Virus record (IMG/VR): IMGVR_UViG_3300042923_000253
Coordinates: 5,455-69,454 of that record
Strand: one strand, 5' to 3'
Source of the DNA: a virus
DNA: 64,000 nucleotides
Positions 13,548 to 37,315 of the stretch are shown one piece after another. Made by a program: the position numbers and the translations under genes. Under the pieces are notes generated by a model that had not been told where the DNA came from, searched no databases, and saw only the letters and a program-made list of their open reading frames with translations. How positions within the stretch are numbered: position 1 is the first letter of the stretch; every line of letters starts with the position of its first letter.

Positions 13548-13615
13548 TTTCGCCACCAACCTTTCTAATCTCTTCAGATCGAATATCGAGGTTGGTAGCG
13601 TTTCAATAAACTATA

Positions 13616-16947: not shown

Positions 16948-17297
16948 ATAATTGATAACTCCTTTCTCATTTGTTCAATATCTACATGAAGAATATAACA
17001 GTCTGGAAAGCGGTCATTAAGTGGACTTGGTGTTGGATTGCCCTCAAGACATTCATATATAATCCTTACACACCTATTCGTTGGATTGTTATTATGTGTC
17101 CAATCAAGATTTACAAACCAATCGATATCCACCCAGTCATTTATTCTGATGTTTGATTGATTTCTGCGTTGTGACCTAATATAGTTCTTTAATAAAGATA
17201 AGTCACTAGCCTTATCATACTGTAGGACTAGTGACTGTCTATCGATATTAGGTCTATCAACTGAAACTACCGTTGAAAACTTCACAATATCGTTCAT
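16905..17297 (-). CDS. Hypothetical protein between the dnaE halves
   Basis: AAGGAG RBS; coupled ORF. Confidence 0.55.
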   Translation of the reverse strand: MNDIVKFSTVVSVDRPNIDRQSLVLQYDKASDLSLLKNYIRSQRRNQSNIRINDWVDIDWFVNLDWTHNNNPTNRCVRIIYECLEGNPTPSPLNDRFPDCYILHVDIEQMRKELSIICKTWDTTNLPKNI

Positions 17298-17497
17298 TAT
17301 TTACTCTCCTTATAATTACTGTGGTTGTCGGTTATACACTCATCACATGGGTAAATCATTGTATGTGATACTCCGAGAGTGGTACTACGATGGAATAATC
17401 TCTTCTGATATAATGAGCATCTATGATTTATGTCTGGGTGACGTCGCTGTATTTCTTCTGTTATATTGATATGACCACACTTATTACAATTTATCAT
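17297..17497 (-). CDS. Small Cys/His-rich hypothetical protein
   Basis: CxxC...HxC...CxxC. Confidence 0.55.
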   Translation of the reverse strand: MINCNKCGHINITEEIQRRHPDINHRCSLYQKRLFHRSTTLGVSHTMIYPCDECITDNHSNYKESK

Positions 17498-17834
17498 CTC
17501 TTATCACCCTCGCTGATGAAGCACCACGTGGTGTTAATGGTACTATATTGTGAAATAATCCACATTTGCATAAACCTTTATCCCTCATTATGACACACGG
17601 GCAGAGGAACTGATCTCCATTGCCACCACATGGACAATGACCATCTTTGCGGTTGAGGGCACTGAGTATACCATCAACCTTTCCACCGTCCTCATTAATA
17701 ATAAATCCAGTGGAGTTTGATATCCTATTCAACCAGAAGCGATTATATGTTGTAACTTGACTGATATTGGCATCAACATCTGGTGTAGTAACTGCTGGAT
17801 TCTTACCTCTAAGTGCATCCATTAATTTTCCCAT
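17484..17834 (-). CDS. Ferredoxin:thioredoxin reductase catalytic-subunit-like protein
   Basis: CPC...CPC...CKCGLF triad matches the FTR CPC/CPC/CHC pattern. Confidence 0.8.
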   Translation of the reverse strand: MGKLMDALRGKNPAVTTPDVDANISQVTTYNRFWLNRISNSTGFIINEDGGKVDGILSALNRKDGHCPCGGNGDQFLCPCVIMRDKGLCKCGLFHNIVPLTPRGASSARVIRDDKL

Positions 17835-18238
17835 TAGAACATCATCCTCCCTAAATTCTGGTGACCCATCCTTGCAAATTCCTCGAATCCTTTTGCCTCT
17901 GGTGGTAAGAATGTAATCTTATCTGGTGCGTGTGTTACTACAGTACCATCATCTAATTCTACTATAGCCACTGTGTAATTACCAGCACCGCTCTCAAACT
18001 CCTCGAAATCATTACCCCATTGGTGGAATAAACCTAATGTCTCTTTATTCTCCCAATATGACTTATTACTGGACATAAAACTTCTCTTCTGTAAACTATC
18101 TATCGTTGGGTCAATCCTTAGACCGATACCTCCTGGTATACCATTATTATACTTCTCAAGTTCATCTTTCCATAGTTCTTGTAATTGTGCATCGGTTCTT
18201 TCTGTTTTGATATTGGTTGTTATTAAGCATTTGCGCAT
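17834..18238 (-). CDS. Hypothetical phage protein
   Basis: GLFHQWG..FEEFE.G.GNYTVAIVE..DG motif; GAGG RBS before the ATG at 18238. Confidence 0.65.
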   Translation of the reverse strand: MRKCLITTNIKTERTDAQLQELWKDELEKYNNGIPGGIGLRIDPTIDSLQKRSFMSSNKSYWENKETLGLFHQWGNDFEEFESGAGNYTVAIVELDDGTVVTHAPDKITFLPPEAKGFEEFARMGHQNLGRMMF

Positions 18239-19176
18239 TTGTTTACCTCTCTTTCTATAAACCATTTAGGAATATTAAAGCTAGGTGGTTTTGTCTCACC
18301 GAACTCAATTATCTTGTCATCAACCCTATCCACTATCAATTGTGTGTTATTGAGATACTCGATTGGATACCGCTCGATCAATTCCTCTTCTGACATCAGC
18401 CAGTAACCATCACCAGAGAAACCATTAAATACTGGATTATCATACCAATTGCCATACTGGATGCTTAGTAGTGTTTTGTGAGCATCACGGTCTTCTTTAT
18501 TGGTGAAATGGGCATCGGTACATGCGATGATCGGTACTCCATGTTTCTTTGCCCACTCCTCCTTGATTTTATTACATCTATCCTCGATCTCTATACCATG
18601 ATTATGATACTCGATGTAGAAATCGTCTTTCAGTAGGTTCAGATACCACATGAACTCATGATATGCTAGTTCGATATTGCCATCAACAATATGACTACAT
18701 ACTGTACCACCAACACAGGCATCTGACCACATTATATTGTGATGATATTGCTCCAACAGTTCCTTGTCAATTCGTGGCACATAATAGAAACCCTCCTCGA
18801 ATGACTTCTTCTGCATTATGCACATGTTCCTATATCCGTCCTTATTCTTTGCCCAAGAATTGATGTGCATATAAGCATCGCCACGCTTTGAGTATGACTT
18901 GTAATGTCTACTGTCCGTTGACATATACCATTCGCATGCTGGTATATACTTAAATCCGAATGTGTTGCACACCGATGCTATTACAGCCTGTCCATACATA
19001 TTGCCATGATCGGTTGCGGTAATTGCTCCAGTACCTCTGCGCTCTGCATTCAGAACTATCTCACCCTTAATGTGTTTCGGATCATCAGCATCCGCTATTC
19101 TTATCATACCATCTTGTAGGCTATATTCTGTGTGTAAGTGTAAGTCGGTGTATGTCAGCTTTCTATTAATATCCAT
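18223..19176 (-). CDS. dnaE: Stand-alone PHP domain of DNA polymerase III alpha (N-terminal half of split DnaE)
   Basis: HLHTEYS..DG, TDHGN, CE.Y, H, GY.N, PRID, AC..G, D.HF; all canonical metal ligands present. Confidence 0.93.
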   Translation of the reverse strand: MDINRKLTYTDLHLHTEYSLQDGMIRIADADDPKHIKGEIVLNAERRGTGAITATDHGNMYGQAVIASVCNTFGFKYIPACEWYMSTDSRHYKSYSKRGDAYMHINSWAKNKDGYRNMCIMQKKSFEEGFYYVPRIDKELLEQYHHNIMWSDACVGGTVCSHIVDGNIELAYHEFMWYLNLLKDDFYIEYHNHGIEIEDRCNKIKEEWAKKHGVPIIACTDAHFTNKEDRDAHKTLLSIQYGNWYDNPVFNGFSGDGYWLMSEEELIERYPIEYLNNTQLIVDRVDDKIIEFGETKPPSFNIPKWFIEREVNKCANA

Positions 19177-19999: not shown

Positions 20000-20596
20000 C
20001 TACTTAATCTTGAGTGAGGATTGACCGCTGGAACCGAAGCCAGTCTCACCACGTAATGATGCCGATAGACTATCAACCTCTTTAATACTGAAACCTTGGA
20101 TAACCCTCTCATGTAGGAGCAGTTGTATTAATCTATCGCCATGATGAATTGTCACTGATTCATTTCCCACGTTGAGGATCTGTGCAAACAACTCACCACG
20201 GTATCCCTCGTCTATTACACCCTTCGGTACTATTAATGATTGTTTGGATGTCGAACTCCTTGCCTCGATTGATGCCCAATATCCTTTTGGTATCTCAAGT
20301 TTAATACCTGTAGGGATAAGGTGTCTCTCGCCAGGATTAATGGTAATATATCCATGTATCAATTCATTAAGATATCCCTGATCTGGCTCCTCATTCATAT
20401 TCATGCATTGTTCATGATAATCGTCTACTGCAGTTTTCCATCCAGATTGATATGGCAATGTTGCTGGTATATCGAGTCCAACATCTCCATCCTTAGCAAT
20501 ACCTATCAGAGGAAACTCCTTTGCCAATTCATTACGTAATACCTTTAATTCCAGTTTATAACTTTTCCCTCTAAATGATAATCCAAATAGCTTCAT
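20000..20596 (-). CDS. dut: Trimeric dUTPase
   Basis: Five motifs: VGLDI, RSS, GVIDEGYRG, GDRLIQ, RGETGFGSSG; ~35-aa insertion after motif I. Confidence 0.88.
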   Translation of the reverse strand: MKLFGLSFRGKSYKLELKVLRNELAKEFPLIGIAKDGDVGLDIPATLPYQSGWKTAVDDYHEQCMNMNEEPDQGYLNELIHGYITINPGERHLIPTGIKLEIPKGYWASIEARSSTSKQSLIVPKGVIDEGYRGELFAQILNVGNESVTIHHGDRLIQLLLHERVIQGFSIKEVDSLSASLRGETGFGSSGQSSLKIK

Positions 20597-20704: not shown

Positions 20705-22663
20705 TCACAGATTTCCAAGTTCGTTTCCGTTCGAATAGAATCTATGCGGTGCATCATGTTTACGTCTAGTTGGGTTCCAATCCTGTTCATCGCTGTAATA
20801 GCCAATTACTCTTGCTCTAGTTCGTGTCAAAGGTTTATGACACACTGGGCATTCATGAACTTCCTGTCCGACAATTGATGCCTTATGCTCATCACACTTA
20901 CCGAACCTATAGCATACTGCAAAGTGCGGTACACCACTCTTAGCGGCAAATTTCATGAGTTCGTACATCTTGCCCTCTGTGTCGATCGGTGCTTCACTAT
21001 TTACATGAACAATACCACCACCGCTGATCAGCTTCATAAATCTACCAGATAATTCGAGTCTAGTAACGATATCAGCCTTATGAACCAATGGGATATATTG
21101 ATTTGAATAAAGGTGAGTTTCGCTGAATAATTCATATACCGATTCACTTACATCTGATGGATCTAACATTAGCTTATCCTTATCGAGCATTGTGACACAT
21201 GCCTGTTCGCCAGGGATTTCCTCTGCATTAAATGTGCACTTGTATTCATTTCTAAGATCCTTGATCTTGCCTTTCAAATACTGCATGAAGTCCATTACGA
21301 ATTCTGTACCATCATCATCGGTGATCTCATATCCCATGAATTGACACATTTCATAGATACCAGTAAGACCGATTGTACTGAACATTGTATCAAGTGAGAA
21401 CCATCCGAGCTTACCGAAAAACTGTAGATATTCTGGTGTTCTCTCTATTCTCTTTTCCAGTATGTCACGTCTGTGTATATTCAATAATTTGCCAGCAACA
21501 TCAAGATAATCATCACATATCTCGATGAATTTGTCATTATCGCCACCAGATAATAGTGCCGCACGTGCAAAGTTAGGGGTAACAACCCTATGACTACCGA
21601 TATTAACTCCACCATTACCAAATGAATCTGGTGTTAGTTCCATATCATCCAAATCATTCTCATATCTACAGCACATTGCAATCTTTGATTTACCACCAAA
21701 ATGCAAATTGAAGTTGCCTAGTTTGATATTAGTACGTGCTGCCCACCTTACTGTTTCATCATCCATGAAATCACCATTCTTATCTGTAGTCGAGTTCATT
21801 GTTACAACTGGAAATCTGTATGGAAATCCAGTAATTGGATCACCTTGTGCAAACCATTCACAGAATACTCTCTGTAGTTTCATGATATACTCCATATCTG
21901 GTTTGGTATAATCTGGGAATGTGATGTGACCGAATAATGACTGTAATCCGATTCTATCATACATGGCTAAGTTGGTGAACGGAGGCTCACCCTCTGCACG
22001 ACCAGGTTCATTAAATAGACATACTAGGCTCTGTAGATCTTGGATTATTTCATCTCTACCCTCTTCTGTATCTGGGTCAATCTTCTCAAGCTTGCAGAAG
22101 TATGAGTACCACAGGAATAGATCTGATGGAGCAGTAGCACCAGCAAATTGCTTTGATAAATCAGAAATCAACTTATCAATCTGTGATAAGAATGATCTCT
22201 TGCGCTTGGGTGGTGTGTTCGGTGATGAACCATAAGGTCTGCCTTCAAATACAATCTTGTCAACACTGAATGCGAAGCAGTATGGCATCTGGATCCTTAG
22301 ACCGTGTGCATCATGGAAGTAAAGGTCGCCATTCCATATCATTGATATAGCCTTATCTGCGAACTCCTTACCATATCTCTTCATAGCATAGTACCATATC
22401 ATGTGATAACCCATCAGCTTCATCTGTCCATTGGATGTATGTGTTCTATACACCGTTGGGTTGATATTTGCGACATAATTCGAATTACCATCGGTCGAGA
22501 TATCTGAGAGTTTCTTCTCGAAGAAATTATGACTCTGTATTCCGATATCCAAATCATCTGGCGCTATACCCTCCATCTTTAATAACTTCAGCAATTTGGG
22601 ATTGTTGGTATATTCGTCATACAATTCCTCAAACTCTGGCATTAAACTAATACCTACATTCAT
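20705..22663 (-). CDS. nrdD: Anaerobic (class III) ribonucleotide reductase, no ATP cone
   Basis: Y.HD, PYC, FP..T.N, MCCR, GS..V.T.N, E.IP.E, C..H/CPVC zinc site, glycyl-radical RVIGY. Confidence 0.95.
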   Translation of the reverse strand: MNVGISLMPEFEELYDEYTNNPKLLKLLKMEGIAPDDLDIGIQSHNFFEKKLSDISTDGNSNYVANINPTVYRTHTSNGQMKLMGYHMIWYYAMKRYGKEFADKAISMIWNGDLYFHDAHGLRIQMPYCFAFSVDKIVFEGRPYGSSPNTPPKRKRSFLSQIDKLISDLSKQFAGATAPSDLFLWYSYFCKLEKIDPDTEEGRDEIIQDLQSLVCLFNEPGRAEGEPPFTNLAMYDRIGLQSLFGHITFPDYTKPDMEYIMKLQRVFCEWFAQGDPITGFPYRFPVVTMNSTTDKNGDFMDDETVRWAARTNIKLGNFNLHFGGKSKIAMCCRYENDLDDMELTPDSFGNGGVNIGSHRVVTPNFARAALLSGGDNDKFIEICDDYLDVAGKLLNIHRRDILEKRIERTPEYLQFFGKLGWFSLDTMFSTIGLTGIYEMCQFMGYEITDDDGTEFVMDFMQYLKGKIKDLRNEYKCTFNAEEIPGEQACVTMLDKDKLMLDPSDVSESVYELFSETHLYSNQYIPLVHKADIVTRLELSGRFMKLISGGGIVHVNSEAPIDTEGKMYELMKFAAKSGVPHFAVCYRFGKCDEHKASIVGQEVHECPVCHKPLTRTRARVIGYYSDEQDWNPTRRKHDAPHRFYSNGNELGNL

Positions 22664-22714
22664 TACACATATCCTCCTGTTATTGATTTATTTATGGTCA
22701 CCAGCATTACCATA

Positions 22715-23188
22715 CTAAACCATTACCCATTCGTCCTTTATCTTATGCCAGAGTTGTTGATTTGATGATGCAAGTTTACCATCACACTTCAAATCCTCTT
22801 CATATCTACCACATTTGATTACACTTATACAATCCCTTATAGCAAATGGTACATCATCGAAGTCATATCCAGTATATAGCCATATTTTGAGACCTTGGCA
22901 GTATAAATCACGACATAATTGATATATGTCCACAATACCTTGGTCTAATGGTTCTCCACCTAATAATACTACAGTATCGAAATCTAACTTCTCCGACTGT
23001 GTTACCACAATAGATACTACATTATCAACTGGTGTCGCAATACCAGAATTGAAATCCCACAATGCCTTATTCTGACAACCATCGCATCTGATTGTACATC
23101 CACTAAACCAGATTGTAAATGATGGCTTATCTTCACCAGCATTATTGACCATATCATATCTGTCATACTTTGCAATCGTTAACATCAC
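22715..23188 (-). CDS. nrdG: Anaerobic RNR activating enzyme (radical SAM)
   Basis: CxxxCxxC (CTIRCDGC), GGEP, W.YTG, SSNQ. Confidence 0.93.
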   Translation of the reverse strand: MMLTIAKYDRYDMVNNAGEDKPSFTIWFSGCTIRCDGCQNKALWDFNSGIATPVDNVVSIVVTQSEKLDFDTVVLLGGEPLDQGIVDIYQLCRDLYCQGLKIWLYTGYDFDDVPFAIRDCISVIKCGRYEEDLKCDGKLASSNQQLWHKIKDEWVMV

Positions 23189-23745
23189 GTTCCTCCTCTT
23201 CTATTGATAATCAGTACCTCATGTATTTTGTTGACAATACCCTGTATAACATCCTTCGGATCATCATCTCCAGCTACTTTATATACATTGTTCGCTGACA
23301 GTATAATCGGCATTGTATCCATCAGATAGTAATTTATTCTCTTCATGAATGAGTAGAGTGAATCATCACTTCTACCCCTTAATCGTGCTCTATCGAACAA
23401 TGTCCCAATGCGTGTATCCACATTTATACATACGAAGTTTATATCATAGAACGAATTAATTAACCATTCGTACTGTTCAACAAACCTTGGGAAACCATCC
23501 AATACCACTACATCGGTGTTCTCACGTTTCGCCTTGAGTAATGCCTTAGCAACTTCACCACGCATAATAACTTCTGGTGCCATTCCACCCTTACTAAGTG
23601 TGTCTGCTACATCAGTATGATCTCTTGCCAGATTACGTGCTATATCACCAGATGATACATATGGTACTTTGAGTCTGTCGCTTATCATCTTTGCAATGGT
23701 TGATTTACCACTACACGGTGCCCCAATAAATATTACAGCTACCAT
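23185..23745 (-). CDS. Adenylate-kinase-like nucleoside monophosphate kinase
   Basis: GAPCSGKST, S.GD..R, LDGFPR..Q, RGR.DD. AGGAGG RBS favours the start at 23745. Confidence 0.88.
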   Translation of the reverse strand: MVAVIFIGAPCSGKSTIAKMISDRLKVPYVSSGDIARNLARDHTDVADTLSKGGMAPEVIMRGEVAKALLKAKRENTDVVVLDGFPRFVEQYEWLINSFYDINFVCINVDTRIGTLFDRARLRGRSDDSLYSFMKRINYYLMDTMPIILSANNVYKVAGDDDPKDVIQGIVNKIHEVLIINRRGGT

Positions 23746-23821
23746 TCTATTATCCCTCCTCTTTCGTGTGTTTACATTTTGTATAGATATAAACACTTAT
23801 CTATGATAAACTACGTCACAG

Positions 23822-26449
23822 TTACACTTCCATCATCTGATAATTTGCTCCAGCAGAGAATACATCGATCAGTATACCCTTCTCACCCATACGATTCTTA
23901 CTGATATTCATTGTCTTATTACCATGCTCAATACCACGCTGGTTTATCTCCTCCTCAGATTTATCCTTGAGTGTGTAGTAATTATCAGCATCCTGTGCAA
24001 TTTCATATGATCCATATCCATGCTCAGCCTCTGCAGTTTCGGCTTCTAATGCTTGTTTACCCAACTGTGAAATTAAGACAACAGCTACGTCCATCTCTTT
24101 CGAGAATTGCTTCCATGCCTTGGATATTACACCTAACTCTCTACTTCTAGTGTCGGTACGTCTATCAGTAACATACTGTAATTGTGCATAATCAATTACA
24201 ATAATCTTAACATGGTTTGTCTGCACATATTTACGTGCTATAGCAAGTGATTCCGACAGATCATGACCACGCTCTGATATGTAGTAGGGTGATTGCATCA
24301 GCATAACTGCGGCTTGATCTAATATCATCTTCTCTTCTATTGTTATGTTGCCAGTAGCCAATGCCTGTGCATCAAGACCACTCAATATGGCGAGATTTCT
24401 GTACGTCATTCTGACTTCATCCATTTCCAACGAGAACCATAATGTAGGAACCTTTAATAGGCATGACCAATGCATACCGAAATTCTCACATAACTGTGTC
24501 TTACCGACTGTCTGATTTGCGGCAATTACTGTCAATGTTTTAGTCTGTAGACCGAGTGTATACCCATCCAACTTCTCAAAGTTCTTGCCGAACGACCAAC
24601 CTATTACTCTTACAGGGTTGTTCATTCTATCCATAATCAACTGCATGGTGGTCTTTACTTGATGACCAGCATCGAATATAAATTCGCTTGATTTATGATG
24701 CATTGTGTCATACATATTGGTCGATGCCTTATCTATTGTCAATGATACATCGGATGATAGGTCATTGAGCCTAAGTTTTGACTCCTCTAGTATTGACAAT
24801 GCCTTACGTCTGATCACCTTATCCTCGACATCTTTCAATGAGAATTCAACATTACCATCATTACTGTGTAGCTTCTCCAACCAACTGTGTGTTACTATGT
24901 TGTCAATGTTCATATTCTTAGCCAATACATACAATGACTCTATATCGGTGTATTCAGCTGATTTTAGTATCCTAAATAGATGCTTATGCTTTAATAGATA
25001 CCAATCATCGTCCTTGAACCTCATGGTCAGTTCTGGTATGAACTGTGGATTACGCATAGCCTCACCCAATAAAACCTCTTCGCCCTCAAGTGAGAATAAC
25101 TTAGCACCAGTAGCCTGTACAGTTGCTTGCATATAGTAATCTTCTATCTGTACTGGGTCTAATCCTATCTTCGATGCTATATGTGTGATCATTATCTGTC
25201 TGGTAACATTGTCGATAACCGCCACCATATATGGCTGTATGTTGAACATAAACTCCATTTTGGCTGTTGGTGTGGTCGCATCATTCCACTTACTGTCAAT
25301 AAGGTACTGGATCGCATATACCGCACTATCTATATATTCCTTGAGACTATCGGCACCGAACTTATTGATATATTCCTCTGGATCGTAACCCTCTGGCATT
25401 GTTGCTATTTTGAGCCTAACATTAGTCTTCAGTCCTAGGTATTTCTCTGCATTCTTGAGTGATTTATTTCTACCAGCCTTATCTCCATCCAATAACATAA
25501 CCAACTCTACAACACGATATTTATCCAATAGATCGAATGTATTCTGATTGATAGCAGTACCCAAGAAGCCGACAGCATTTATACCTTGTTGGACACAGGC
25601 AATTGTATCTGGCGCACCCTCAACTCCGATTAACCTACCCTTTGATGTTGGCAATTTACGTTTTGCAATTGGGAAACCGAATATACGATCTGTTTCATCG
25701 AATAGTGGATGTGTATCATCGCCACCAATGTATTTCATGCCAGGTAGTGGGTGGAAAGGTCTCGATTGGAAGTACCGCATCTTACCCATTGTGTCAGTTA
25801 TAGGGAATAATATCGCATCATTGAATTGACCTTTCCTATCCAGTTGTAATGCTAATGAGTTTGGTATATCACTGAATAAGTGTACTATACCATCGGTCAA
25901 TACTGGTGCATAACCGAGTTTGAATAATTCTATTGACTCATTTGTGATACCTCTACCGTGGAGATAATTAAGTGCATCTGGACTATTCATCAATCTCTGG
26001 TTCGCCTTTTCACGTGCCATATTGTTATCGTTGAATAGCTGGATCTTTACTTGCTCTTCCACTGATAATTCGACATAGTATGGCTGTAAATCGAAACCTT
26101 GTATCTCTGCTACTATCGCTATAGATTCCAAATGGTCTACATTAAATTTCCTACTGATATACTCAAATCTGTCGCCAGATATACCACAACCGAAGCAATG
26201 CCATAATTCTTTCGGTGGACATATAGTAAAGGAGGCGGTACTATCTCTAGTACCGTCCCTATCAACTGGATGCTCGTCGAGGTCACACTTCTTCTTATAT
26301 AAGTGATCACTAATCCTCTCAATTGGGTTTGAAGCATTGCCAGTCTCCTCTGAGTATCTACCATCAGCAAGTGACATAAATTGATCTAATGGCATATTAG
26401 CCTTTAGGTCTTGTCTAACTAAATCTATATCACCAAACTTTTTACTCAT
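23822..26449 (-). CDS. Fused DnaG primase - DnaB helicase
   Basis: Zn finger (C..H...CFGC), YL..RGI, KY, TOPRIM VEG..D and DGD.AG, then DnaB motifs A.QTVGKT, FSLEM, IDY.QL, SQL, QDAD, KNR.G. Confidence 0.92.
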   Translation of the reverse strand: MSKKFGDIDLVRQDLKANMPLDQFMSLADGRYSEETGNASNPIERISDHLYKKKCDLDEHPVDRDGTRDSTASFTICPPKELWHCFGCGISGDRFEYISRKFNVDHLESIAIVAEIQGFDLQPYYVELSVEEQVKIQLFNDNNMAREKANQRLMNSPDALNYLHGRGITNESIELFKLGYAPVLTDGIVHLFSDIPNSLALQLDRKGQFNDAILFPITDTMGKMRYFQSRPFHPLPGMKYIGGDDTHPLFDETDRIFGFPIAKRKLPTSKGRLIGVEGAPDTIACVQQGINAVGFLGTAINQNTFDLLDKYRVVELVMLLDGDKAGRNKSLKNAEKYLGLKTNVRLKIATMPEGYDPEEYINKFGADSLKEYIDSAVYAIQYLIDSKWNDATTPTAKMEFMFNIQPYMVAVIDNVTRQIMITHIASKIGLDPVQIEDYYMQATVQATGAKLFSLEGEEVLLGEAMRNPQFIPELTMRFKDDDWYLLKHKHLFRILKSAEYTDIESLYVLAKNMNIDNIVTHSWLEKLHSNDGNVEFSLKDVEDKVIRRKALSILEESKLRLNDLSSDVSLTIDKASTNMYDTMHHKSSEFIFDAGHQVKTTMQLIMDRMNNPVRVIGWSFGKNFEKLDGYTLGLQTKTLTVIAANQTVGKTQLCENFGMHWSCLLKVPTLWFSLEMDEVRMTYRNLAILSGLDAQALATGNITIEEKMILDQAAVMLMQSPYYISERGHDLSESLAIARKYVQTNHVKIIVIDYAQLQYVTDRRTDTRSRELGVISKAWKQFSKEMDVAVVLISQLGKQALEAETAEAEHGYGSYEIAQDADNYYTLKDKSEEEINQRGIEHGNKTMNISKNRMGEKGILIDVFSAGANYQMMEV

Positions 26450-27345: not shown

Positions 27346-27796
27346 TCACTTCATCCTCTCCGCTCCAGTTAGTAACATCCAATCCGAGGTGTTCCTCGAT
27401 TTTATTGATCGCTTGACATACCTTATTAAATCTAGAGTCTGTCATATCATTGGTTGCTCTTATCATACGCAATGTTATTCCATATGAATGTGATACAGCT
27501 TTATCAACATCAAGCATCGTTGCATTGGTACGGTCATGGTCGAATGACTGTTTAGCTTTCATTTTGATGTCTTGATATCTCTGGTATTCCACGATATCGT
27601 CATTATCACTTGATTGCTTACATGTAGTTATCATACGATTAGTTGCGATAGTAAACATATCTCTAATAGCCGCATGACAATCTGATGGATGCATCTTATC
27701 CAAGAAATCGTTCAATTCCTTTATTGTTTTTGCATTCTCGATACCAGTTCTGATTGACTCCATAATCTTCTCTAACTCTGCTCTACTCATTCCCAT
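27269..27796 (-). CDS. Hypothetical protein
   Basis: Coupled ORF in the replication operon. Confidence 0.55.
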   Translation of the reverse strand: MGMSRAELEKIMESIRTGIENAKTIKELNDFLDKMHPSDCHAAIRDMFTIATNRMITTCKQSSDNDDIVEYQRYQDIKMKAKQSFDHDRTNATMLDVDKAVSHSYGITLRMIRATNDMTDSRFNKVCQAINKIEEHLGLDVTNWSGEDEVNDTTGNDVSGVEENTTGTGDTSTEE

Positions 27797-28343
27797 CTCT
27801 CTTTACCTCCATAATTGCGTCTATAAACCAGACTGCATGATTTTTAAGATCATCAAGTGATCCATCATTCTTGATACAATAATCGTATTTATATTCTAAT
27901 ACATTATCGTCTGCTGCATTACCATATTCCTTATCAGCCTCATAACGAGTGACTAATATTGTACATACCTTAATACCGAGTGGCTCAAGTGCCTTCATAG
28001 CATTTCTGAATTTCTCAATCTCTTTCGGCTCACGGATATGTGTGAATATCACCACATCCTCATTCGATGATGTCTTGTCTGTGAGTACATTATTGATGAG
28101 ATATCCAGTTGGACCATTATTGTTACTTGCCCAAAATTCCTTGAGCATTGATAACATTGCTCTTGCACTATTTGTCTTGATTCCGTCCCAACCTAGATCC
28201 TTTAATACCTTTTTGACAGGATCGATTGACGATACCGATTTACAATGAGCGATCTCATTATCATCAATATACTTACAACATTTATTGATGAACGTATCCT
28301 TACCACTCTCTGGCTTACCATTCACTATTACAACGTATTTCAT
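27783..28343 (-). CDS. P-loop kinase (dNMP-kinase-like)
   Basis: NGKPESGKDT, GWDG.K...R..L, HIREP.E, I.NDGSL.DL. Confidence 0.8.
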   Translation of the reverse strand: MKYVVIVNGKPESGKDTFINKCCKYIDDNEIAHCKSVSSIDPVKKVLKDLGWDGIKTNSARAMLSMLKEFWASNNNGPTGYLINNVLTDKTSSNEDVVIFTHIREPKEIEKFRNAMKALEPLGIKVCTILVTRYEADKEYGNAADDNVLEYKYDYCIKNDGSLDDLKNHAVWFIDAIMEVKRDGNE

Positions 28344-32544: not shown

Positions 32545-33042
32545 TTATTTTATTATAATGCCCTCGTCCTCACACTCTACGAAACCAGTATTGGATATTG
32601 ACGTATTATACTTAACCCATAGACCGTACATGTCTTTCTTCATCTTCTTACCATTCTTATCTATGGCTGGGTATAGTACGATGCTTGATATTTCTTTCAT
32701 ATCTTTCATCTTCTCGGCTTTACTCTTTGCGATGAAATCTCCATAATTACCGCAGAACCTATAACCTCTCTTATATCTTTTCTTGATGATATCTAGATCG
32801 TAGCATGATGATGTCTGTTGTGATATCCTATACGCTATATCATCTTCCTTGAGATATGTTGCACCATTGTGCATCTCTGAGAAAACCTCATACATCCAGC
32901 ATGGACTATTCTCTTTCTGGTATACCATATTAATCTTAATCCTGTTCGGCATATGCTCACCGAATTTGTGCCCAAGGTCAATTACTGACCCTGGGTTATA
33001 TAATGGTGTTGTAACTATTCCCATCTCTTCTCCTCCGTTCAT
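32545..33042 (-). CDS. Hypothetical protein
   Basis: Co-oriented ORF with RBS, downstream of thyX. Confidence 0.55.
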   Translation of the reverse strand: MNGGEEMGIVTTPLYNPGSVIDLGHKFGEHMPNRIKINMVYQKENSPCWMYEVFSEMHNGATYLKEDDIAYRISQQTSSCYDLDIIKKRYKRGYRFCGNYGDFIAKSKAEKMKDMKEISSIVLYPAIDKNGKKMKKDMYGLWVKYNTSISNTGFVECEDEGIIIK

Positions 33043-33050
33043 AAATCATC

Positions 33051-33743
33051 CTATACCTCTGGCAGTTCGATGTCATCAAACACAACTGGAATACGTGACT
33101 TGAAATCACCGAGTAATGGTATTGTGACTTCACGCATCTGAGGATGCACTGACATTGGTGTACGTAATCTAAAGAAGTTTCTCCAATTACGGAAATCCAT
33201 TGTAATGGCTATATCTGTCTTCAAACTATTGGGCAGTACTGATCTAGCCTCTTGTGCACTCCATCCCATATCCAACAATCTTAGATACGATGCTTCTGCT
33301 GATCCCATCTGCTGTAACCACTCCAACTCTGTATTCTTGAATACTGATACATCTTTCACCTTGTGTTGCAATAATTCTTCGTAATAGCTTGGTACGTATT
33401 CAAACCAACTTGGTACAATAACTGAAATTTCACTACCAAATTTGTCGTTTGAGTAATTACAATATCTAGTACTCTCTTGTGCGAAACTTGCGATCCGATG
33501 TCTCACTAATTCATGAGAAACACCACGATCCACGGTAAACTTGACTGATATCATTGAGTACTCGATCATTGCCTCGTGACCTCTATTGATAAGCATCTTT
33601 ACAAAGGCTTTGGCACTCTCGCCATCATCTGTGATCTTATCCTCTGACTTATAGCACACTCTACCAATCTTCTCGATGTGCTGTAACATTTTGATACCAT
33701 CAATCTCTGTTAGGATTTCATAACTCGGTTTCATTATTTTCAT
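33051..33743 (-). CDS. thyX: Flavin-dependent thymidylate synthase
   Basis: GH...E, R..SHELVRHR.ASFAQESTRY, AR.VLP, LR....HPQ.R. Confidence 0.95.
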   Translation of the reverse strand: MKIMKPSYEILTEIDGIKMLQHIEKIGRVCYKSEDKITDDGESAKAFVKMLINRGHEAMIEYSMISVKFTVDRGVSHELVRHRIASFAQESTRYCNYSNDKFGSEISVIVPSWFEYVPSYYEELLQHKVKDVSVFKNTELEWLQQMGSAEASYLRLLDMGWSAQEARSVLPNSLKTDIAITMDFRNWRNFFRLRTPMSVHPQMREVTIPLLGDFKSRIPVVFDDIELPEV

Positions 33744-33754
33744 ATGTTGCCTCC

Positions 33755-34912
33755 TTATCTTCTGATATCAACGATATCGCAATCACGAGCACCTGTGCCA
33801 ATTAGAGTTACTGGAACACCTGTTACTTCTTCGATCCTAGCAATAGCATCCTTTACTCTCTGTGGCAATTCATTGTATGATGTGGCATTGAGTGCACCCC
33901 AATCAATATATTGTGCGAAGTTTAGTGCGATCTGGGTAGGTCTATTCAGCTTGGTTACATACTTGAGTCTATCCCAATTCATTTCGAACACTCTACGTGT
34001 CTTCTTGGTAACAGTAGTCTTCTCAGCCAGATCTACATCAGATGGTGCTCCACATCTTTCCTTTACGATTTCCCATGATATTTCTGGTGCTCCATCATAT
34101 CCGCCAGAAGATGTACTGAAGCCTAGATTAGTCTCATTGCTGATACGGATTGGATATGGTCTCATTATCATGATGATATCACCCACTAATCTTGGTGATA
34201 TACCACAATCAGCAACTAACTGCCCAGCATGGCATTGTCTACTAGTGGTATGAGGGTAATCGAGTCCATAATTGATATCTAGGTCGCAACCCTGTGAGCC
34301 TTCGACTATTACACTATGACCGTGGTCTATGGCATCATTCACATAATGCATAGTATCCATCACTACAATGTGATCTTTGATAAACTCAATCTTATCATCA
34401 TCGTAATGACACATTTCCATATTGAATGCCCTTACTAGATCATCTTTCCAGAATTCTCCGAATAACACCGCTTGTCTCATAACTTTATCGGCTTGAGCCG
34501 CACCACATCCCTTGAATGTGGAGCCACTGCGTAATAATTGCTGTTCGGTATATTGATGTTTATCGGTAATTACTACAGCTCTTGGATTAATAATTATCTT
34601 GCGATCACTAATGATATCCTTGTAGTTCCATATCTCATCAAATAGGATAGATGGTGTGATAGCAGATCCTGGACCAATTACTAGTGCTGTATCACGGTTG
34701 ACAATAGATGTCGGTAGGTGCTGTGTCATTACCTTATCGCCATCATTATTTACCCATGTATGCCCAGCATTCGACATAAAATTATTGATAGCTACCTCAA
34801 CATTATCCTTCTTCGCTAGGTAGCCAATGAATTTACCCTTACCACAGGAACCAGCCTGTGAGTCCAATACTACTGTTACATTTCCCTTATTAACCTCTCG
34901 TGCATTAATCAT
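33755..34912 (-). CDS. purZ: N6-succino-2-amino-dAMP synthetase (PurZ-type adenylosuccinate synthetase paralog)
   Basis: D.Q.GSCGKG (Ser where PurA has Asp in GDEGKG), NAGHT, EG.QG..L, YP..TSR.C, R.YPIR, E.TTVTKK.RRVF, LNFAQY (PurA TKLD). Start 34912 by RBS. Confidence 0.85.
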   Translation of the reverse strand: MINAREVNKGNVTVVLDSQAGSCGKGKFIGYLAKKDNVEVAINNFMSNAGHTWVNNDGDKVMTQHLPTSIVNRDTALVIGPGSAITPSILFDEIWNYKDIISDRKIIINPRAVVITDKHQYTEQQLLRSGSTFKGCGAAQADKVMRQAVLFGEFWKDDLVRAFNMEMCHYDDDKIEFIKDHIVVMDTMHYVNDAIDHGHSVIVEGSQGCDLDINYGLDYPHTTSRQCHAGQLVADCGISPRLVGDIIMIMRPYPIRISNETNLGFSTSSGGYDGAPEISWEIVKERCGAPSDVDLAEKTTVTKKTRRVFEMNWDRLKYVTKLNRPTQIALNFAQYIDWGALNATSYNELPQRVKDAIARIEEVTGVPVTLIGTGARDCDIVDIRR

Positions 34913-34956: not shown

Positions 34957-35718
34957 TCATAGACCATGCTCTTCCATTAATTGTTCTTCTCTGAATATTA
35001 TATCATTATTGTAATAATATCCATATCCGTGGTTCCTGATATAATCGATCATGTTATCTCTACCCTTGTTATAGCTACCTAGAATTGCCATATCAAGTTT
35101 GTCACCTGTCAAACCTCTATCTGTCCAATATTCCTCCTCATAATTGTGAAAAAATATTAACCAATCAATGGCATCATATGGGTCGTATGGATCAATATCT
35201 TTATCCATCAGATCGGAGAAATAATTTAGATATCTACTGTTAATCTGTGCCAGTCCCATATCCCTAGTGCCATTTTTATTATGACCGCATGCTGTCTTAT
35301 CATAGGTACTCTCTTCACAAATCTGTGCCATCACTAGATAGAAATCTACATCATTCTTTTCACATTCCTCCCATAAATACTTCTGTAGTTCGTCATCGAA
35401 TTCTAAATACCCATTCTTCAGTTCATCATAATATTTGTTTATTGGTTCGAACTCCTGTTCAGATTCCTGTTCTTGTTCCTGTTCTATTATTATATTCTCT
35501 TGGTGTATTGTTATAATAGTTGGTGCATAATTTTCATGATCATATGTCTCGTCTGTGATAGTCTCAATGGTTTCAACGCTTATTGATGAAATACTGACAT
35601 CCGCTGATACAGAAATGGGTGGATTCGCATCCACCCTACTGTATCCTATCATAGAACTCAATAACAATATCGTCAGCGGTGCTAGGTATGACATCAATGC
35701 TAATTTCTTCTTTAGCAT
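34957..35718 (-). CDS. Lytic transglycosylase (SLT) with N-terminal signal/anchor
   Basis: ES.Y, D.GL.QIN, YN.G motifs; hydrophobic N-terminus and acidic linker. Confidence 0.85.
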   Translation of the reverse strand: MLKKKLALMSYLAPLTILLLSSMIGYSRVDANPPISVSADVSISSISVETIETITDETYDHENYAPTIITIHQENIIIEQEQEQESEQEFEPINKYYDELKNGYLEFDDELQKYLWEECEKNDVDFYLVMAQICEESTYDKTACGHNKNGTRDMGLAQINSRYLNYFSDLMDKDIDPYDPYDAIDWLIFFHNYEEEYWTDRGLTGDKLDMAILGSYNKGRDNMIDYIRNHGYGYYYNNDIIFREEQLMEEHGL

Positions 35719-35728
35719 TAGTCTCCTC

Positions 35729-37315
35729 CTAACTTTTCCTCTTAACTACGTATGGTGTTGCATAGTTCACATCCATGCAACTTCCCATTTGTTGTTTAAG
35801 ATCTGGGAACATATTTAATTTTCTGTCTAACTTCTGCTTATTGATCGATATGCAATCATCCAATATATTCAGTCTATTATTGACTAATAGTACATTACGT
35901 ACATTGTTATAATTGTATGATTCCATAGCATTTGAATATAAACTCAATTTCTTGCCACCAATCACTAATTCCTGACCACACTTTGAAGCCTCCTCAACTG
36001 CTGTCTTTAGAATGATTTGACAATCATCCTTTCTAGTCTTGGCTATCTTCTCATATGTTGCCATTAGTTCCTTTTGTCTATCTATCTCTCTCAAGTCGGT
36101 TCTCTCTGGCATCATTATTGGGTCGATCATAGTTGATGCATTTTCTAGGAAGTTACGATACGTCTTGCACTTAAATCTGCATTTACGATATCCGCAATAT
36201 GGGTTTAATGTCTCTTCCCAAGTATTATCATTTGATATTTGCTTCCAAATGTTAGCAACGTATTCTTCGGCTGACAATAGCTCGTCCATACTCCATTCTG
36301 GACATTGTTGCCATTTGTGGTAGAACATTTCATATCCAGATATCCATCTATCGATCTGTGGTGCAAGGTGTCTGCGTAATATCAGCTGATAGATCCTTAG
36401 CTGGATACTACTATGTAGGTCGGCTGTGGTGAATGGCATACGATTGGTCTTATAATCCTTTAATAAACCGATGTTCGGCATATCTCTAAATACACCAGCG
36501 TAGTCCATGATTAGACCGAATGTAGTACCACCAAACTCACCTCTCCATTCGGTCTCTATGAATAATGGATCATCTGGTCTTGTATTAACTGGATTACGTG
36601 CAAAATAACTAAGTACAAGTTGTTTGCCCTCATCATATGCATCAAATCCAGTTAACTGATTTCTCTGCCATACATCTTTATATATACCTATCGGATCAAC
36701 TATTATTCCACTGTCACGGTAATATTTGAATGCTAATTCAACTACCTCATGCAAGATCGATCCAAATTTAGTGTAATAATTACTACCATCTTCATCGGCT
36801 GTATCATCACTCAAATACTGATCGAAGAAACACGCTGGGCATTGCTCATATGCTCCCATCTTTGATACCGATAGATAATCCAGCTTATTCTCTCTAGCTT
36901 TCCATAACACTGGTATTCTCTCAATGATGGCGCCAGATGCAATATCGATTATCTGTGCTTCCATTTCGGAACGATTACGGAAGATCTCAAGCTTGATATC
37001 TTCTGTCCTCAGCGCCCTCTGATTTACCACTATTGTATTAATACAGTTATCGCATGGTTTGTTGTTCAGTAATGATTGTACTACATCTGGATTATATAAG
37101 TTGTGTGATACTACTGGGATGGAACCGCATACCATTGCTGGTTCTGTGGTCTTATGTACCGCATTTGATCCATTATTTACCGTTTTTAATACGATGTCGG
37201 TACGGATAGGTGATGGTGGTGTCTTCACCGCACCCACCATTGTTATACCATCTCCACTCTCTGTACACTCATAACATCTCTTGTGTATATCACAGTTTTG
37301 TGAACATTCTTTCAT
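35729..37315 (-). CDS. PD-(D/E)xK exonuclease (RecB/AddB/Cas4-like)
   Basis: LS.S....YEQCP, FG..LH...E, E, G..D, DYKT, QL..Y, C....C...C. Confidence 0.85.
   Translation of the reverse strand: MKECSQNCDIHKRCYECTESGDGITMVGAVKTPPSPIRTDIVLKTVNNGSNAVHKTTEPAMVCGSIPVVSHNLYNPDVVQSLLNNKPCDNCINTIVVNQRALRTEDIKLEIFRNRSEMEAQIIDIASGAIIERIPVLWKARENKLDYLSVSKMGAYEQCPACFFDQYLSDDTADEDGSNYYTKFGSILHEVVELAFKYYRDSGIIVDPIGIYKDVWQRNQLTGFDAYDEGKQLVLSYFARNPVNTRPDDPLFIETEWRGEFGGTTFGLIMDYAGVFRDMPNIGLLKDYKTNRMPFTTADLHSSIQLRIYQLILRRHLAPQIDRWISGYEMFYHKWQQCPEWSMDELLSAEEYVANIWKQISNDNTWEETLNPYCGYRKCRFKCKTYRNFLENASTMIDPIMMPERTDLREIDRQKELMATYEKIAKTRKDDCQIILKTAVEEASKCGQELVIGGKKLSLYSNAMESYNYNNVRNVLLVNNRLNILDDCISINKQKLDRKLNMFPDLKQQMGSCMDVNYATPYVVKRKS

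Follow-up and report, generated by a model that had tools for sequence, protein, structure and literature searches.

What does a gut phage do with a PurZ-like synthetase when its genome encodes no DatZ, no MazZ and no DpoZ of family A? This question is raised by P0001, a Ser-type homologue of adenylosuccinate synthetase encoded in a window of 64,000 nucleotides (positions 5,455 to 69,454 of IMG/VR record IMGVR_UViG_3300042923_000253). The whole record is 69,454 bp long with a 127-bp terminal repeat, is rated 100% complete, and has a GC content of 38.5% (61% A+T). In our judgement the chances are evenly balanced that the clade of P0001 is an uncharacterised PurZ lineage making dZ precursors. 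Two other readings are weighed alongside it. The first, which we hold to be rather unlikely, is that a dGMP- or GMP-using enzyme serves as a device on the nucleotide pool, draining dGTP/dGMP or dATP or yielding a purine nucleotide, succinylated or 2-amino, that has some other fate, so that any Z in the DNA would be low and partial. The second, which we consider unlikely, is that P0001 is an ordinary purine auxiliary that uses IMP and, together with ThyX, NrdDG, Dut and the kinases, lifts dATP and dTTP for an A+T-rich genome of canonical DNA. The genes concerned are the following, in window coordinates.

13990..19176, minus strand: split DnaE replicase, core at 13990-16947 (PF07733, 4.7e-65) and PHP protein at 18223-19176 (PF02811, 8.5e-28)
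20000..20596, minus strand: dUTPase-family protein (Dut), 198 aa with a 35-residue insert (PF00692, 2.4e-20; PHROG 135, 2e-37)
20705..23188, minus strand: anaerobic ribonucleotide reductase NrdD (20705-22663; PF13597, 8.3e-76) and its activase NrdG (22715-23188; PF13353, 1.2e-18)
23185..23796, minus strand: adenylate-kinase-like NMP kinase (PF00406, 1.6e-14)
23822..26449, minus strand: DnaG-DnaB primase-helicase fusion
27783..28343, minus strand: dNMP-kinase-like protein (PHROG 139, 9.6e-11; weak PF21448)
32545..33042, minus strand: conserved 165-aa protein (orf50), direct neighbour of purZ in relatives
33051..33743, minus strand: ThyX thymidylate synthase (PF02511, 1.6e-41), immediately downstream of purZ
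33755..34912, minus strand: P0001, Ser-type adenylosuccinate-synthetase homologue, PurZ-like (PF00709, PHROG 1211, PDB matches)
34957..35718, minus strand: SLT-domain transglycosylase (orf53; PF01464, 7e-06), upstream of purZ
35729..37315, minus strand: PD-(D/E)XK nuclease (PF12705, 4.4e-10), conserved upstream neighbour of purZ by synteny

Motifs and phylogeny of the synthetase

The open reading frame of P0001 had been proposed in a first-pass annotation of the sequence and is real. It encodes 385 aa, with a Shine-Dalgarno-like stretch (AAAGGAAG) 7 nt 5' of the ATG at 34912; starting instead at an ATG further upstream (34960) would lengthen the protein to 401 aa. P0001 matches Pfam PF00709 (E 1.5e-44) and PHROG 1211, '2-aminooxy adenylosuccinate synthetase' (4.5e-65), and its sequence matches in the PDB are the adenylosuccinate synthetase 5k7x (2.6e-44), phiVC8 PurZ 6fm1 (4.5e-37) and S-2L PurZ 7odx (1e-26). 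That the top match is an adenylosuccinate synthetase and not a PurZ favours an ordinary PurA, as do the NCBIfam models, in which P0001 stands as close to archaeal-type PurA (NF003295, 218.6 bits, cut-off 368) as to PurZ (NF038379, a slightly lower 209.7 bits, cut-off 300). With 167.3 bits on TIGR00184 (cut-off 395.55), P0001 nevertheless falls below every curated PurA cut-off, which speaks against that reading. The proteins of phiVC8, S-2L, SH-Ab 15497, Wayne and Ghobes all pass NF038379 (five of five, 346-421.5 bits) and reach just 131-189 bits on NF003295.

The motifs lie where they had been seen, GSCGKG at residues 21-26, RPYPIR at 251-256, TTVTKKTRRVF at 299-309 and LNFAQY at 330-335. S22 of GSCGKG occupies the position of the catalytic Asp13 of PurA, and its counterparts are S23 in S-2L and S14 in phiVC8; Ser is found there in 128 of the 132 aligned rows and Asp in all three PurA outgroups. 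S23, T273 and Q308, which the S-2L structure paper calls PurZ-specific substrate contacts (PMC8342488), are all kept in P0001 as S22, T299 and Q334. Of the phiVC8 residues flagged in a recent preprint (bioRxiv 10.1101/2025.10.22.683976), 9 of 13 are identical in P0001, and the adenine-stacking F295 and Y298 named there correspond to F332 and Y335. The LNFAQY motif is the S-2L donor motif letter for letter. Elsewhere the aromatic residue beside the 2-amino pocket (S-2L Y21, phiVC8 F12) has become Ala, which counts against the PurZ reading, and Ile stands in place of V241. The PurZ-type pocket residues that P0001 keeps are also what a pool device acting on dGMP or GMP would have. In comparison with PurA, Gln334, flanked by Phe and Tyr, takes the place of the Asp that specifies guanine in the (N/T)KxD motif, and the Gly of the GTTT loop is Thr; together with the change of the catalytic Asp to Ser, this argues against an IMP-using enzyme. 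Gln334 with its aromatic neighbours is predicted from sequence to give P0001 an ATP-type pocket, where the PurZ0 proteins of Wayne and Ghobes carry Asp.

P0001 thus resembles the Z-cluster PurZ of phiVC8, S-2L and SH-Ab 15497 in its Ser for the catalytic Asp, in having a TTVT loop and an N-F-x-(N/Q)-Y donor motif of the ATP/dATP type, and in its side of the PurZ0 split; its tblastn identity to phiVC8 and SH-Ab 15497 PurZ is 31-33%. It differs from them in forming a separate clade, in failing the NF038379 cut-off that those three pass, and in keeping an archaeal-PurA-like C-terminal tail. The archaeal-type short PurA (NF003295; 5k7x, 2d7u), which provides both the best-scoring solved relative and the best-scoring NCBIfam model, is similar to P0001 in length and in the C-terminal region, whereas it keeps GDEGKG.

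A PurA/PurZ0/PurZ phylogeny, which the first-pass annotation had named as a check, upholds the PurZ assignment in part: P0001 belongs to the Ser-type group and to the PurZ side, and stands outside the clades of characterised PurZ. The trees were rooted on three Asp-type PurA sequences that are bacterial and long-branched, archaeal PurA being left out. Within them, P0001 is placed inside the Ser-type group (support 99 in FastTree, 95 in IQ-TREE). The characterised PurZ form clades of 37 rows (99) and 12 rows (96), and P0001 is found elsewhere, in a separate Ser-type clade of 58 rows (96) and 36 rows (94) that also includes Bacillus phage vB_BpsS-140. In both trees P0001 is on the PurZ side of the PurZ0 split, and it is therefore bracketed by dGMP-using enzymes. 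In all, 1369 proteins match P0001 at E<=1e-10, and identity to P0001 is 65-77% among the 119 matches listed, its own protein excluded. The gene is present in all eight IMG/VR relatives defined by their helicase, which were found by an alignment-seeded helicase scan (a single-sequence helicase seed gave no relatives), and purZ is a core gene of this phage lineage.

Replication genes, neighbours and partner genes

The position of purZ between thyX and a transglycosylase gene is as first described. Among the relatives examined, the transglycosylase orf53 has a match in one locus only (L138). The adjoining thyX counts in favour of an ordinary purine auxiliary. The protein orf50, which adjoins purZ directly in relatives, gave zero matches in Pfam, PHROG and NCBIfam and no usable match in an ESM Atlas search, and no PDB fold matched its AF2 model (pLDDT 82.1) at E<=0.001, by which a hidden HD, MazG or NUDIX fold was ruled out. 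Another protein, orf40 (26668-27345), likewise has zero Pfam or PHROG matches, and a replication role for it is a mere guess from position. The split DnaE, whose core and PHP protein are separated by three small ORFs, was correctly recognised as the sole polymerase; the tail sheath and baseplate wedge support the assignment to the myoviruses, and NrdD with NrdG fits an anaerobic host.

The claimed absence of DatZ, MazZ/DUF550 and a family-A DpoZ holds across the complete genome, also beyond the window. In six frames of the whole record, PF01966, PF03819, PF04447, PF05014, PF18909, PF00476 and PF12917 gave zero matches at E<=1, and phmmer with 21 queries (including DatZ, MazZ, DUF5664-DUF550, DmtZ, DpoZ, PrimPol and NUDIX) against 639 six-frame ORFs matched the Dut ORF alone. 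For DatZ, three queries gave no match below E 0.26, next to the empty HD searches with PF01966 and PF12917. For MazG-like/DUF550 proteins (PF03819, PF04447), the S-2L MazZ and SH-Ab DUF5664-DUF550 queries were unmatched, as were phiVC8 DpoZ and S-2L PrimPol for a family-A polymerase or PrimPol (PF00476), and the DmtZ queries for NDT/DUF5664 (PF05014, PF18909). Four near-complete relatives and vB_BpsS-140 lack DatZ, MazZ/DUF550 and family-A DpoZ as well. Unlike the Z-cluster phages, this phage has no datZ, mazZ/DUF550 or dpoZ beside purZ or genome-wide. The absence of DatZ, MazZ and a Z-selective polymerase fits a pool device. Among the families with demonstrated dATP removal, none turned up in profile and phmmer searches of the genome, which fits an ordinary PurA and counts against the PurZ reading.

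To say that the known partners are lacking was nevertheless an overstatement, as a dUTPase-family gene is present, and this family replaces DatZ and MazZ in the PurZ0 (Wayne-like) phages (PMC12884076). The PurZ0 systems of these actinophages, in which PurZ0 and DutZ are joined optionally by DmtZ and DUF5664-1 (PMC12884076), resemble this phage in having neither DatZ nor MazZ, and here too a dUTPase-family gene is the sole recognisable dNTP hydrolase. The two differ in that P0001 has Gln and not Asp in the donor motif and lies outside the PurZ0 clade, in that NDT/DmtZ, DUF5664, PolA and a primase-polymerase are missing from this phage, and in that its Dut gene is 13 kb from purZ and differs from PurZ0 DutZ in grouping; the hosts, moreover, are likely anaerobic Firmicutes, against Actinomycetota for the PurZ0 systems.

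Dut scores 99.6 bits on TIGR00576, just under the cut-off of 102.55, keeps all canonical dUTPase motifs, and is matched by the DutZ of Ghobes and Wayne at 7.6e-18 and 6e-17. It shares with both characterised DutZ the sequence GYRGELFA/S in the motif-3 hairpin, found in none of six other phage Duts. In a 13-row tree, in which DutZ and the other Duts are poorly separated, it does not group with DutZ. Chromosomal Duts of 12 bacterial genomes were dropped as controls, being of a different subfamily. From its sequence, Dut is a candidate dNTP pyrophosphohydrolase partner or else an ordinary Dut, for which there is an obvious role beside ThyX. The adenylate-kinase-like protein (76.4 bits on TIGR01351, under the cut-off) is conserved in all four relatives and in vB_BpsS-140, and is a candidate dZMP kinase. 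The genes for Dut, this kinase and the dNMP-kinase-like protein had all been missed at first.

Bacillus phage vB_BpsS-140 and a chromosomal sister clade

The nearest named relative is vB_BpsS-140 (MH884512; DSM 29700), whose PurZ-like protein and Dut are 41.5% and 39.6% identical to those of this phage. The two phages have 13 colinear genes in common, in the order sigma, orf55, PD-(D/E)XK, PurZ, SSB-like, HJ resolvase, helicase, primase, Adk, Dut, sigma, PHP and DnaE, with a homologous split DnaE and two sigma factors. Both are without DatZ, MazZ, DmtZ, DpoZ and NUDIX, and CCGG, GGCC and CGCG are purged from both. In contrast to this phage, vB_BpsS-140 is a siphovirus of an aerobic alkaliphile (Bacillus pseudalcaliphilus) with a genome of 55 kb, and its synthetase has GSEGKG and LNFANY where P0001 has GSCGKG and LNFAQY, and Ala at the position of S-2L T273. 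The core status of purZ in all eight relatives, together with its retention alongside the same replisome in two distant phage lineages, is better explained by a genome-wide commitment than by a pool device.

The DNA of vB_BpsS-140 was reported to be uncut by DraI (PMC6483233), which tells against canonical DNA and an ordinary PurA, and the genome contains 21 TTTAAA sites. If Z is the cause, resistance across all 21 sites implies high substitution, which a pool device would not give; the cutting of the same DNA by EcoRI (PMC6483233) counts against the PurZ reading and is in keeping with such a device. In the literature consulted, we found no statement calling vB_BpsS-140 a Z-phage, and the main text of PMC12944874 gives no single-enzyme results (DraI, EcoRI or GATC cutters) on dZ-DNA.

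Site composition had been offered as an independent hint of Z. The A-tract avoidance is weak (observed/expected 0.82 for AAAA, 0.92 for AAAAA) and was rejected as evidence (0.76-0.92). The retention of A-containing sites is true of 12 A/T palindromes (0.64-1.28) and fails for GCWGC (12 observed against 63 expected), GGWCC (15 against 45) and CCWGG (29 against 55); the depletion of GCWGC and GGWCC is of the kind expected without modification, which suits an ordinary PurA and tells against the PurZ reading. GC-only 4-bp palindromes are nearly purged (CCGG 0 against 53, GGCC 1 against 73), and this may reflect host restriction enzymes alone. One relative (G006) has 64 GATC against 294 expected. 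These compositional hints are ambiguous and fail to discriminate.

The sister clade of the clade of P0001 is a chromosomal gene of low-GC gut Firmicutes. In 20 of 47 full-length loci it lies immediately after a MutT-like NUDIX gene or forms a fusion with it. By analogy, this link may follow the logic of MazZ feeding PurZ, and an enzyme working on IMP would have little use for a fused NUDIX domain. The bacterial gene is the sole PF00709 member in three of the five genomes checked (G003-G005), and one of them, G003, also has purB, as one would expect of an ordinary PurA. A search with TIGR00928 found PurB in just five of 12 genomes with the bacterial form, which weighs against that reading; the Pfam ADSL_C model was judged insensitive, with hits in none of five genomes, and missed even G002, which has a canonical purA. 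A pool device would be consistent with NUDIX-PurZ-like fusions on chromosomes, with the absence of purB from the other seven of the 12 bacteria, and with one NUDIX-fused copy that adjoins KilA-N and recombinase genes. The sister clade shows that the clade can fill a cellular role not necessarily involving Z-DNA. These bacteria were also considered as hosts of this phage and rejected, their contigs having about 26% GC against 38.5%. Only unrelated papers came up when the literature was searched for PurZ in combination with DnaE or with NUDIX. If truly of PurZ type, the NUDIX-linked chromosomal genes would provide the first example, as far as our literature search went, of such an enzyme serving a cell.

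A possible route to dZ

We infer PurZ activity for P0001, and this is not secure because the protein scores below the NF038379 cut-off and has its sister clade on bacterial chromosomes. If P0001 works as a member of a third Ser-type ('PurZ-group') synthetase lineage, it would most likely join dGMP and aspartate, with ATP or dATP as donor, into N6-succino-2-amino-2'-deoxyadenylate. Host PurB would then release dZMP, phosphorylation by the phage Adk-like or dNMP kinase and by a host NDP kinase would yield dZTP, and the split DnaE would insert dZTP opposite T, placing Z in the virion DNA. The lowering of dATP and the supply of dGMP might fall to Dut, in the role that DutZ has in PurZ0 phages, to the dATP use of PurZ itself, or to neither, in which case substitution would be partial. 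S-2L PurZ is reported to consume dATP too (PMC8342488), which a pool device could also exploit.

A wider form of this proposal is more tentative, and we regard it as possible rather than probable. In it, a third PurZ lineage, common among gut Firmicutes myoviruses and found also in vB_BpsS-140, would make Z-DNA through a split DnaE, without enzymes of the DatZ, MazZ or DpoZ types and with a Dut variant and an Adk-like kinase as the sole phage helpers, while a domesticated NUDIX-linked bacterial branch would lead from dGTP through dGMP to succino-aminodeoxyadenylate, either for a nucleotide-depleting defence or for a cellular 2-aminoadenine pathway. It is very improbable that another modification (e.g. 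of thymine) or host methylation explains the DraI resistance of vB_BpsS-140 and the site avoidance, the PurZ-like gene being unrelated: ThyX and Dut occur in both phages and many ORFs have no assigned function, but the product of ThyX is ordinary dTMP, and the 50 ORFs besides P0001 that were scanned with Pfam hold no hydroxymethylase or glucosyl- or amino-transferase domain. Thymidine hypermodification would also block DraI (TTTAAA).

If the PurZ reading is true, the Z-DNA trait would extend to phages that infect Firmicutes in the animal gut and to a DnaE-type replicase with a minimal partner set. According to the introduction of a NAR 2026 paper, Z-genome phages infect Pseudomonadota, Cyanobacteriota and Actinomycetota, and the Z-phage polymerases described so far in the sources consulted are of family A or PrimPol. 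If P0001 is instead a PurA, the criterion that a recent preprint uses for a dZ genome, a 'PurZ homologue with S14', over-calls. The question is testable, as vB_BpsS-140 is cultured and deposited and its DraI resistance and PacBio RSII data are published. Three long PurZ-like representatives showed no partner domains in a PDB sequence search, the sole extra being an intron-endonuclease match in P0203.

The PurZ-like enzyme and its position in the family

The PurZ-like protein P0001, a Ser-type homologue of adenylosuccinate synthetase (PurA), has 385 amino acids and is encoded at window 33755–34912 (minus strand), with a AAAGGAAG stretch 7 nt upstream of the ATG at 34912; an alternative in-frame ATG at 34960, which shares bases with the stop codon of the gene before it, would give 401 amino acids. 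It matches Pfam Adenylsucc_synt (1.5e-44), PHROG 1211, “2-aminooxy adenylosuccinate synthetase” (4.5e-65), and the solved structures of adenylosuccinate synthetase (5k7x, 2.6e-44), phiVC8 PurZ (6fm1, 4.5e-37) and S-2L PurZ (7odx, 1e-26). The presence of a PurZ-like gene in this phage, reported in the first-pass annotation, was confirmed, and the motifs named there were found at residues 21–26 (GSCGKG), 251–256, 299–309 and 330–335 (LNFAQY).

P0001 was aligned with PurZ of S-2L, phiVC8 and SH-Ab, with PurZ0 of the Wayne-like actinophages Wayne and Ghobes, and with three Asp-type PurA from bacterial genomes. S22 occupies the position of PurA Asp13, T299 (S-2L T273) stands where canonical PurA has Gly, and Q334 aligns with S-2L Q308, where both PurZ0 and PurA have Asp. 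Passages of the S-2L structure paper name S23, T273 and Q308 as PurZ-unique substrate-touching residues and state that V241, the position of which is Ile in P0001, clashes with the ribose 2'-OH (PMC8342488). F332 and Y335 align with phiVC8 F295 and Y298, given as adenine-ring contacts in an excerpt of the metaGPA preprint (bioRxiv 10.1101/2025.10.22.683976). Nine of the 13 flagged phiVC8 residues are identical in P0001; of the other four, F12 and P144 are replaced by Ala, G256 by Lys and S273 by Glu. We give about an even chance that P0001 belongs to an uncharacterised PurZ lineage feeding synthesis of dZTP (Z, 2-aminoadenine) to a DnaE replisome, with a dUTPase-family protein (Dut) and an adenylate-kinase-like protein (Adk) as candidate helpers. 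The same residues could serve a nucleotide-pool device that acts on dGMP and leaves the genome unrecoded, which we consider unlikely.

The model scores count against PurZ. P0001 reaches 209.7 bits with the PurZ model NF038379 (cut-off 300) and 218.6 bits with the archaeal-type PurA model NF003295 (cut-off 368), vs 397 (phiVC8), 350 (S-2L), 421.5 (SH-Ab), 367 (Wayne) and 346 bits (Ghobes) with the former and 131–189 bits for the same five with the latter. Similar scores are obtained for the PurZ-like protein of the cultured Bacillus phage vB_BpsS-140 (211.5 and 233.9 bits) and for the bacterial homologues (about 207 and 236–238 bits). A PurA-like supply gene would fit such scores; set beside the PurZ-type residues it appears slightly less probable again than the pool device.

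An exhaustive protein search with P0001 gave 4548 clusters at 50% identity (E<=0.001). Among 132 aligned rows (126 of the best 150 of the 4548 representatives, 300–480 aa, plus P0001 and five named references), the catalytic position is Ser in 128, Gly in two, Asp in one and a gap in one. Trees from FastTree (170 rows) and IQ-TREE (83 rows; LG+C20+F+G4, SH-aLRT), both rooted on three GDEGKG PurA, agree in placing every Ser-type sequence in one clade (99 and 95, both starred), with a root that is provisional because the outgroup branches are long and no archaeal PurA is among the rows. PurZ0 forms one subclade (FastTree 96, IQ-TREE 95, both starred) and the characterised PurZ enzymes another (FastTree 99, IQ-TREE 96, both starred), and P0001 and vB_BpsS-140 fall in a third (96, starred, 58 rows; 94, 36 rows). 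The N-F-x-(N/Q)-Y donor motif is common only to the PurZ side, which agrees with this topology. In the clade next to that of P0001, the representative P0193 carries GDCGKG, thus a catalytic Asp within an otherwise Ser-type group. PurZ-like proteins of 700–800 aa also exist (P0136, P0147, P0171, P0188, P0203, P0230); in P0147 the match to PurZ begins anew at residue 460, and P0203 weakly matches an intron-encoded endonuclease (6x1j, 3.3e-5), which suggests inteins or homing endonucleases within some purZ genes.

Gene content and candidate partners

The IMG/VR record, of which the window is bases 5455–69454, is 69,454 bp long, carries a terminal direct repeat of 127 bp and has a completeness rating of 100%; the 5.4 kb outside the window hold plus-strand tail genes, including that of a 1023-aa tape measure. 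Genes annotated as tail sheath and baseplate wedge support a probable myovirus, and no tRNA genes were found in the genome. Replication and nucleotide genes form a minus-strand block at window 9985–49336.

Features of the minus-strand block (window coordinates)
12031–12567, minus, HAD-like phosphatase (PHROG 1238)
12888–13559, minus, HIRAN-domain protein
13990–16947, minus, DnaE core (replication)
18223–19176, minus, PHP-domain protein, separate from the DnaE core (replication)
20000–20596, minus, Dut (nucleotide module)
23185–23796, minus, Adk (nucleotide module)
27783–28343, minus, dNMP-kinase-like protein (nucleotide module)
33051–33743, minus, ThyX (nucleotide module)
Within the replication block: sigma factor; NrdD and NrdG; DnaG-DnaB primase-helicase; SF2 helicase and Holliday-junction resolvase
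With the PurZ-like gene: SLT transglycosylase and PD-(D/E)XK nuclease

The HIRAN protein and the phosphatase adjoin an ATP-dependent ligase and RNase H, and four relatives keep every one of these. The replicase is split and interrupted, with three short ORFs at window 16905–18265, which encode 130, 116 and 143 aa and have no Pfam match, between the PHP gene and the DnaE core, unlike in vB_BpsS-140, where the two parts are adjacent. Two sigma-factor-like genes (19232–19987 and 39303–40025) both have colinear counterparts in that phage. The 165-aa protein at 32545–33042 is a conserved direct neighbour of purZ in relatives; its structure, predicted with confidence (pLDDT 82, pTM 0.73), resembled no PDB fold at E<=0.001, and no family matched its sequence.

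Searches of the entire record, in six frames, for the families HD, YfbR-like, MazG, DUF550, NDT, DUF5664 and PolA found nothing at E<=1, nor did these families occur in Pfam scans of 51 ORFs. In a phmmer search of all 639 six-frame ORFs of at least 40 aa, 21 queries from phiVC8, S-2L, SH-Ab 15497, Wayne, Ghobes and the bacterial NUDIX (three DatZ, MazZ, DUF5664-DUF550, DmtZ, DutZ, DpoZ, PrimPol, their small neighbours, and the NUDIX) matched one ORF only, Dut (Ghobes DutZ 7.6e-18; Wayne DmtZ-DutZ 6e-17). Apart from Dut, the partners likewise have no homologue in four relatives rated 97–100% complete or in vB_BpsS-140. The first-pass claim that known partners are lacking therefore stands for DatZ, MazZ, DUF550 and PolA-type homologues by sequence, but it overlooked Dut, and this matters because DutZ of the dUTPase family hydrolyses dATP and dGTP and replaces DatZ and MazZ in the PurZ0 phages, which have neither (NAR 2026, PMC12884076). 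The interpretation built on that claim is partly supported: the PurZ-type residues and the missing partners favour it, whereas the unnoticed Dut and the score below the NCBIfam PurZ cut-off do not. The PurZ0 phages provide a precedent for the partner set here, and S-2L, which uses a non-PolA polymerase, provides one for the polymerase; each unusual element has a precedent. Nothing relevant was found in the literature on PurZ with DnaE or PurZ with NUDIX.

Dut has all five dUTPase motifs and scores just below the NCBI dut cut-off (99.6 vs 102.55 bits), and by default it is read as an ordinary enzyme that makes dUMP from dUTP for ThyX. It has a 35-residue insert (residues 46–80), placed after motif 1 and before the strand that follows, which is present in the relative L086 and missing in L085, L087 and L088; vB_BpsS-140 Dut has a different insert further along. 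Four relatives and vB_BpsS-140 share the motif-3 hairpin GYRGELFA, a position at which the two DutZ enzymes read ELFA or ELFS; six other phage Duts and the two PDB Duts shown lack this motif. Dut did not join DutZ in a 13-row tree. A dUTPase homologue also lies within 10 kb of purZ in two IMG/VR loci (L014, L015) of another, distant Ser-type clade, so that Dut-PurZ linkage recurs in several lineages; the L014 hairpin is GELEV, not ELFA.

The phage lineage and its DNA

A word-indexed search gave 1369 protein matches to P0001 at E<=1e-10; among those listed, the window's own protein aside, identities are 65–77% and many lie on 60–69-kb contigs. IMG/VR loci retrieved through PurZ are syntenic. 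Because loci seeded with PurZ would be circular, the helicase was used as scan seed: purZ is present in all eight module-sharing loci, one of them a contig not retrieved through PurZ, and seven loci with helicase identity <=32% have neither synteny nor purZ within 10 kb. purZ is a core gene of a large phage lineage. Four complete or near-complete relatives (GC 36–48%) retain PurZ, Dut, Adk, dNMP kinase, ThyX, NrdDG, PHP and DnaE.

vB_BpsS-140 (MH884512) is the best named match for both the PurZ-like protein (41.5%) and Dut (39.6%), and 13 genes are colinear with it (sigma, orf55, PD-(D/E)XK, PurZ, SSB-like, resolvase, helicase, primase-helicase, Adk, Dut, sigma, PHP, DnaE core); an excerpt of its authors' paper lists a split dnaE (PMC6375668). 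Its 55,091-bp genome has 21 TTTAAA and 24 GAATTC sites, and its DNA resists DraI and is cut by EcoRI, according to a published passage (PMC6483233). DraI resistance is as Z would give, although it would also follow from other modifications of A or T, and EcoRI cutting is not clearly expected of Z-DNA. That a modification unrelated to the PurZ-like gene explains the DraI result is quite improbable.

Expected site counts came from a maximal-order Markov model. The phage genome is poor in CCGG (0 vs 53 expected), GGCC (1 vs 73) and CGCG (8 vs 30), with no avoidance of GCGC, whereas the 12 four-base palindromes containing A/T have observed/expected ratios of 0.64–1.28; three of the four GC-only palindromes have ratios below 0.5 and none of the 12 containing A/T does, a difference with p=0.007 in a post-hoc Fisher test. 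The purge of CCGG, GGCC and CGCG recurs in vB_BpsS-140. Avoidance extends to sites that hold a single A:T pair (GCWGC 12 vs 63; GGWCC 15 vs 45; CCWGG 29 vs 55) but not to GCSGC (31 vs 23), and relatives avoid GATC (64 vs 294 in G006, one of them) and differ in the GC-only sites avoided. The pattern fits shielded A/T-rich sites and host-specific restriction avoidance equally well. The proposed hint of A-tract avoidance was not borne out, A-tracts being barely depleted (0.76–0.92).

A bacterial sister clade

A scan of GTDB genome contigs, with each prokaryotic species represented by a single genome, found 53 chromosomal loci (L022–L074; e.g., L038:9533–11071, L042:9989–11080) in low-GC Firmicutes MAGs from the gut with the labels Clostridia, Bacilli, “Tenericutes”, Clostridium sp. 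CAG:575 and CAG:440, on contigs of up to 430 kb and about 26% GC. These homologues are 50–56% identical to P0001; GSCGKG is present in 46 of 47 full-length copies, most of which were also found to have LNFAQYID. They are monophyletic (99, starred, FastTree; 92, IQ-TREE) and share one starred clade with P0001's phage clade (99, 42 rows; 98, 24 rows), to which they are sister at lower support (85 in FastTree, no resolution in IQ-TREE). No other gene of the phage was found within 10 kb on either side, save one 31% NrdG match; neighbours include FtsY, UPF0182, a dicarboxylate symporter and, in one case, KilA-N with a recombinase. Three of five genomes checked have no other PF00709 gene, and purB was found in five of 12, of unknown completeness; its frequent lack argues against a plain AMP-synthesis role of the bacterial form. 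Ten copies carry an N-terminal NUDIX fusion and ten more have NUDIX directly upstream, MutT-like and below the NCBI cut-off in both cases, a link that mirrors MazZ feeding PurZ.
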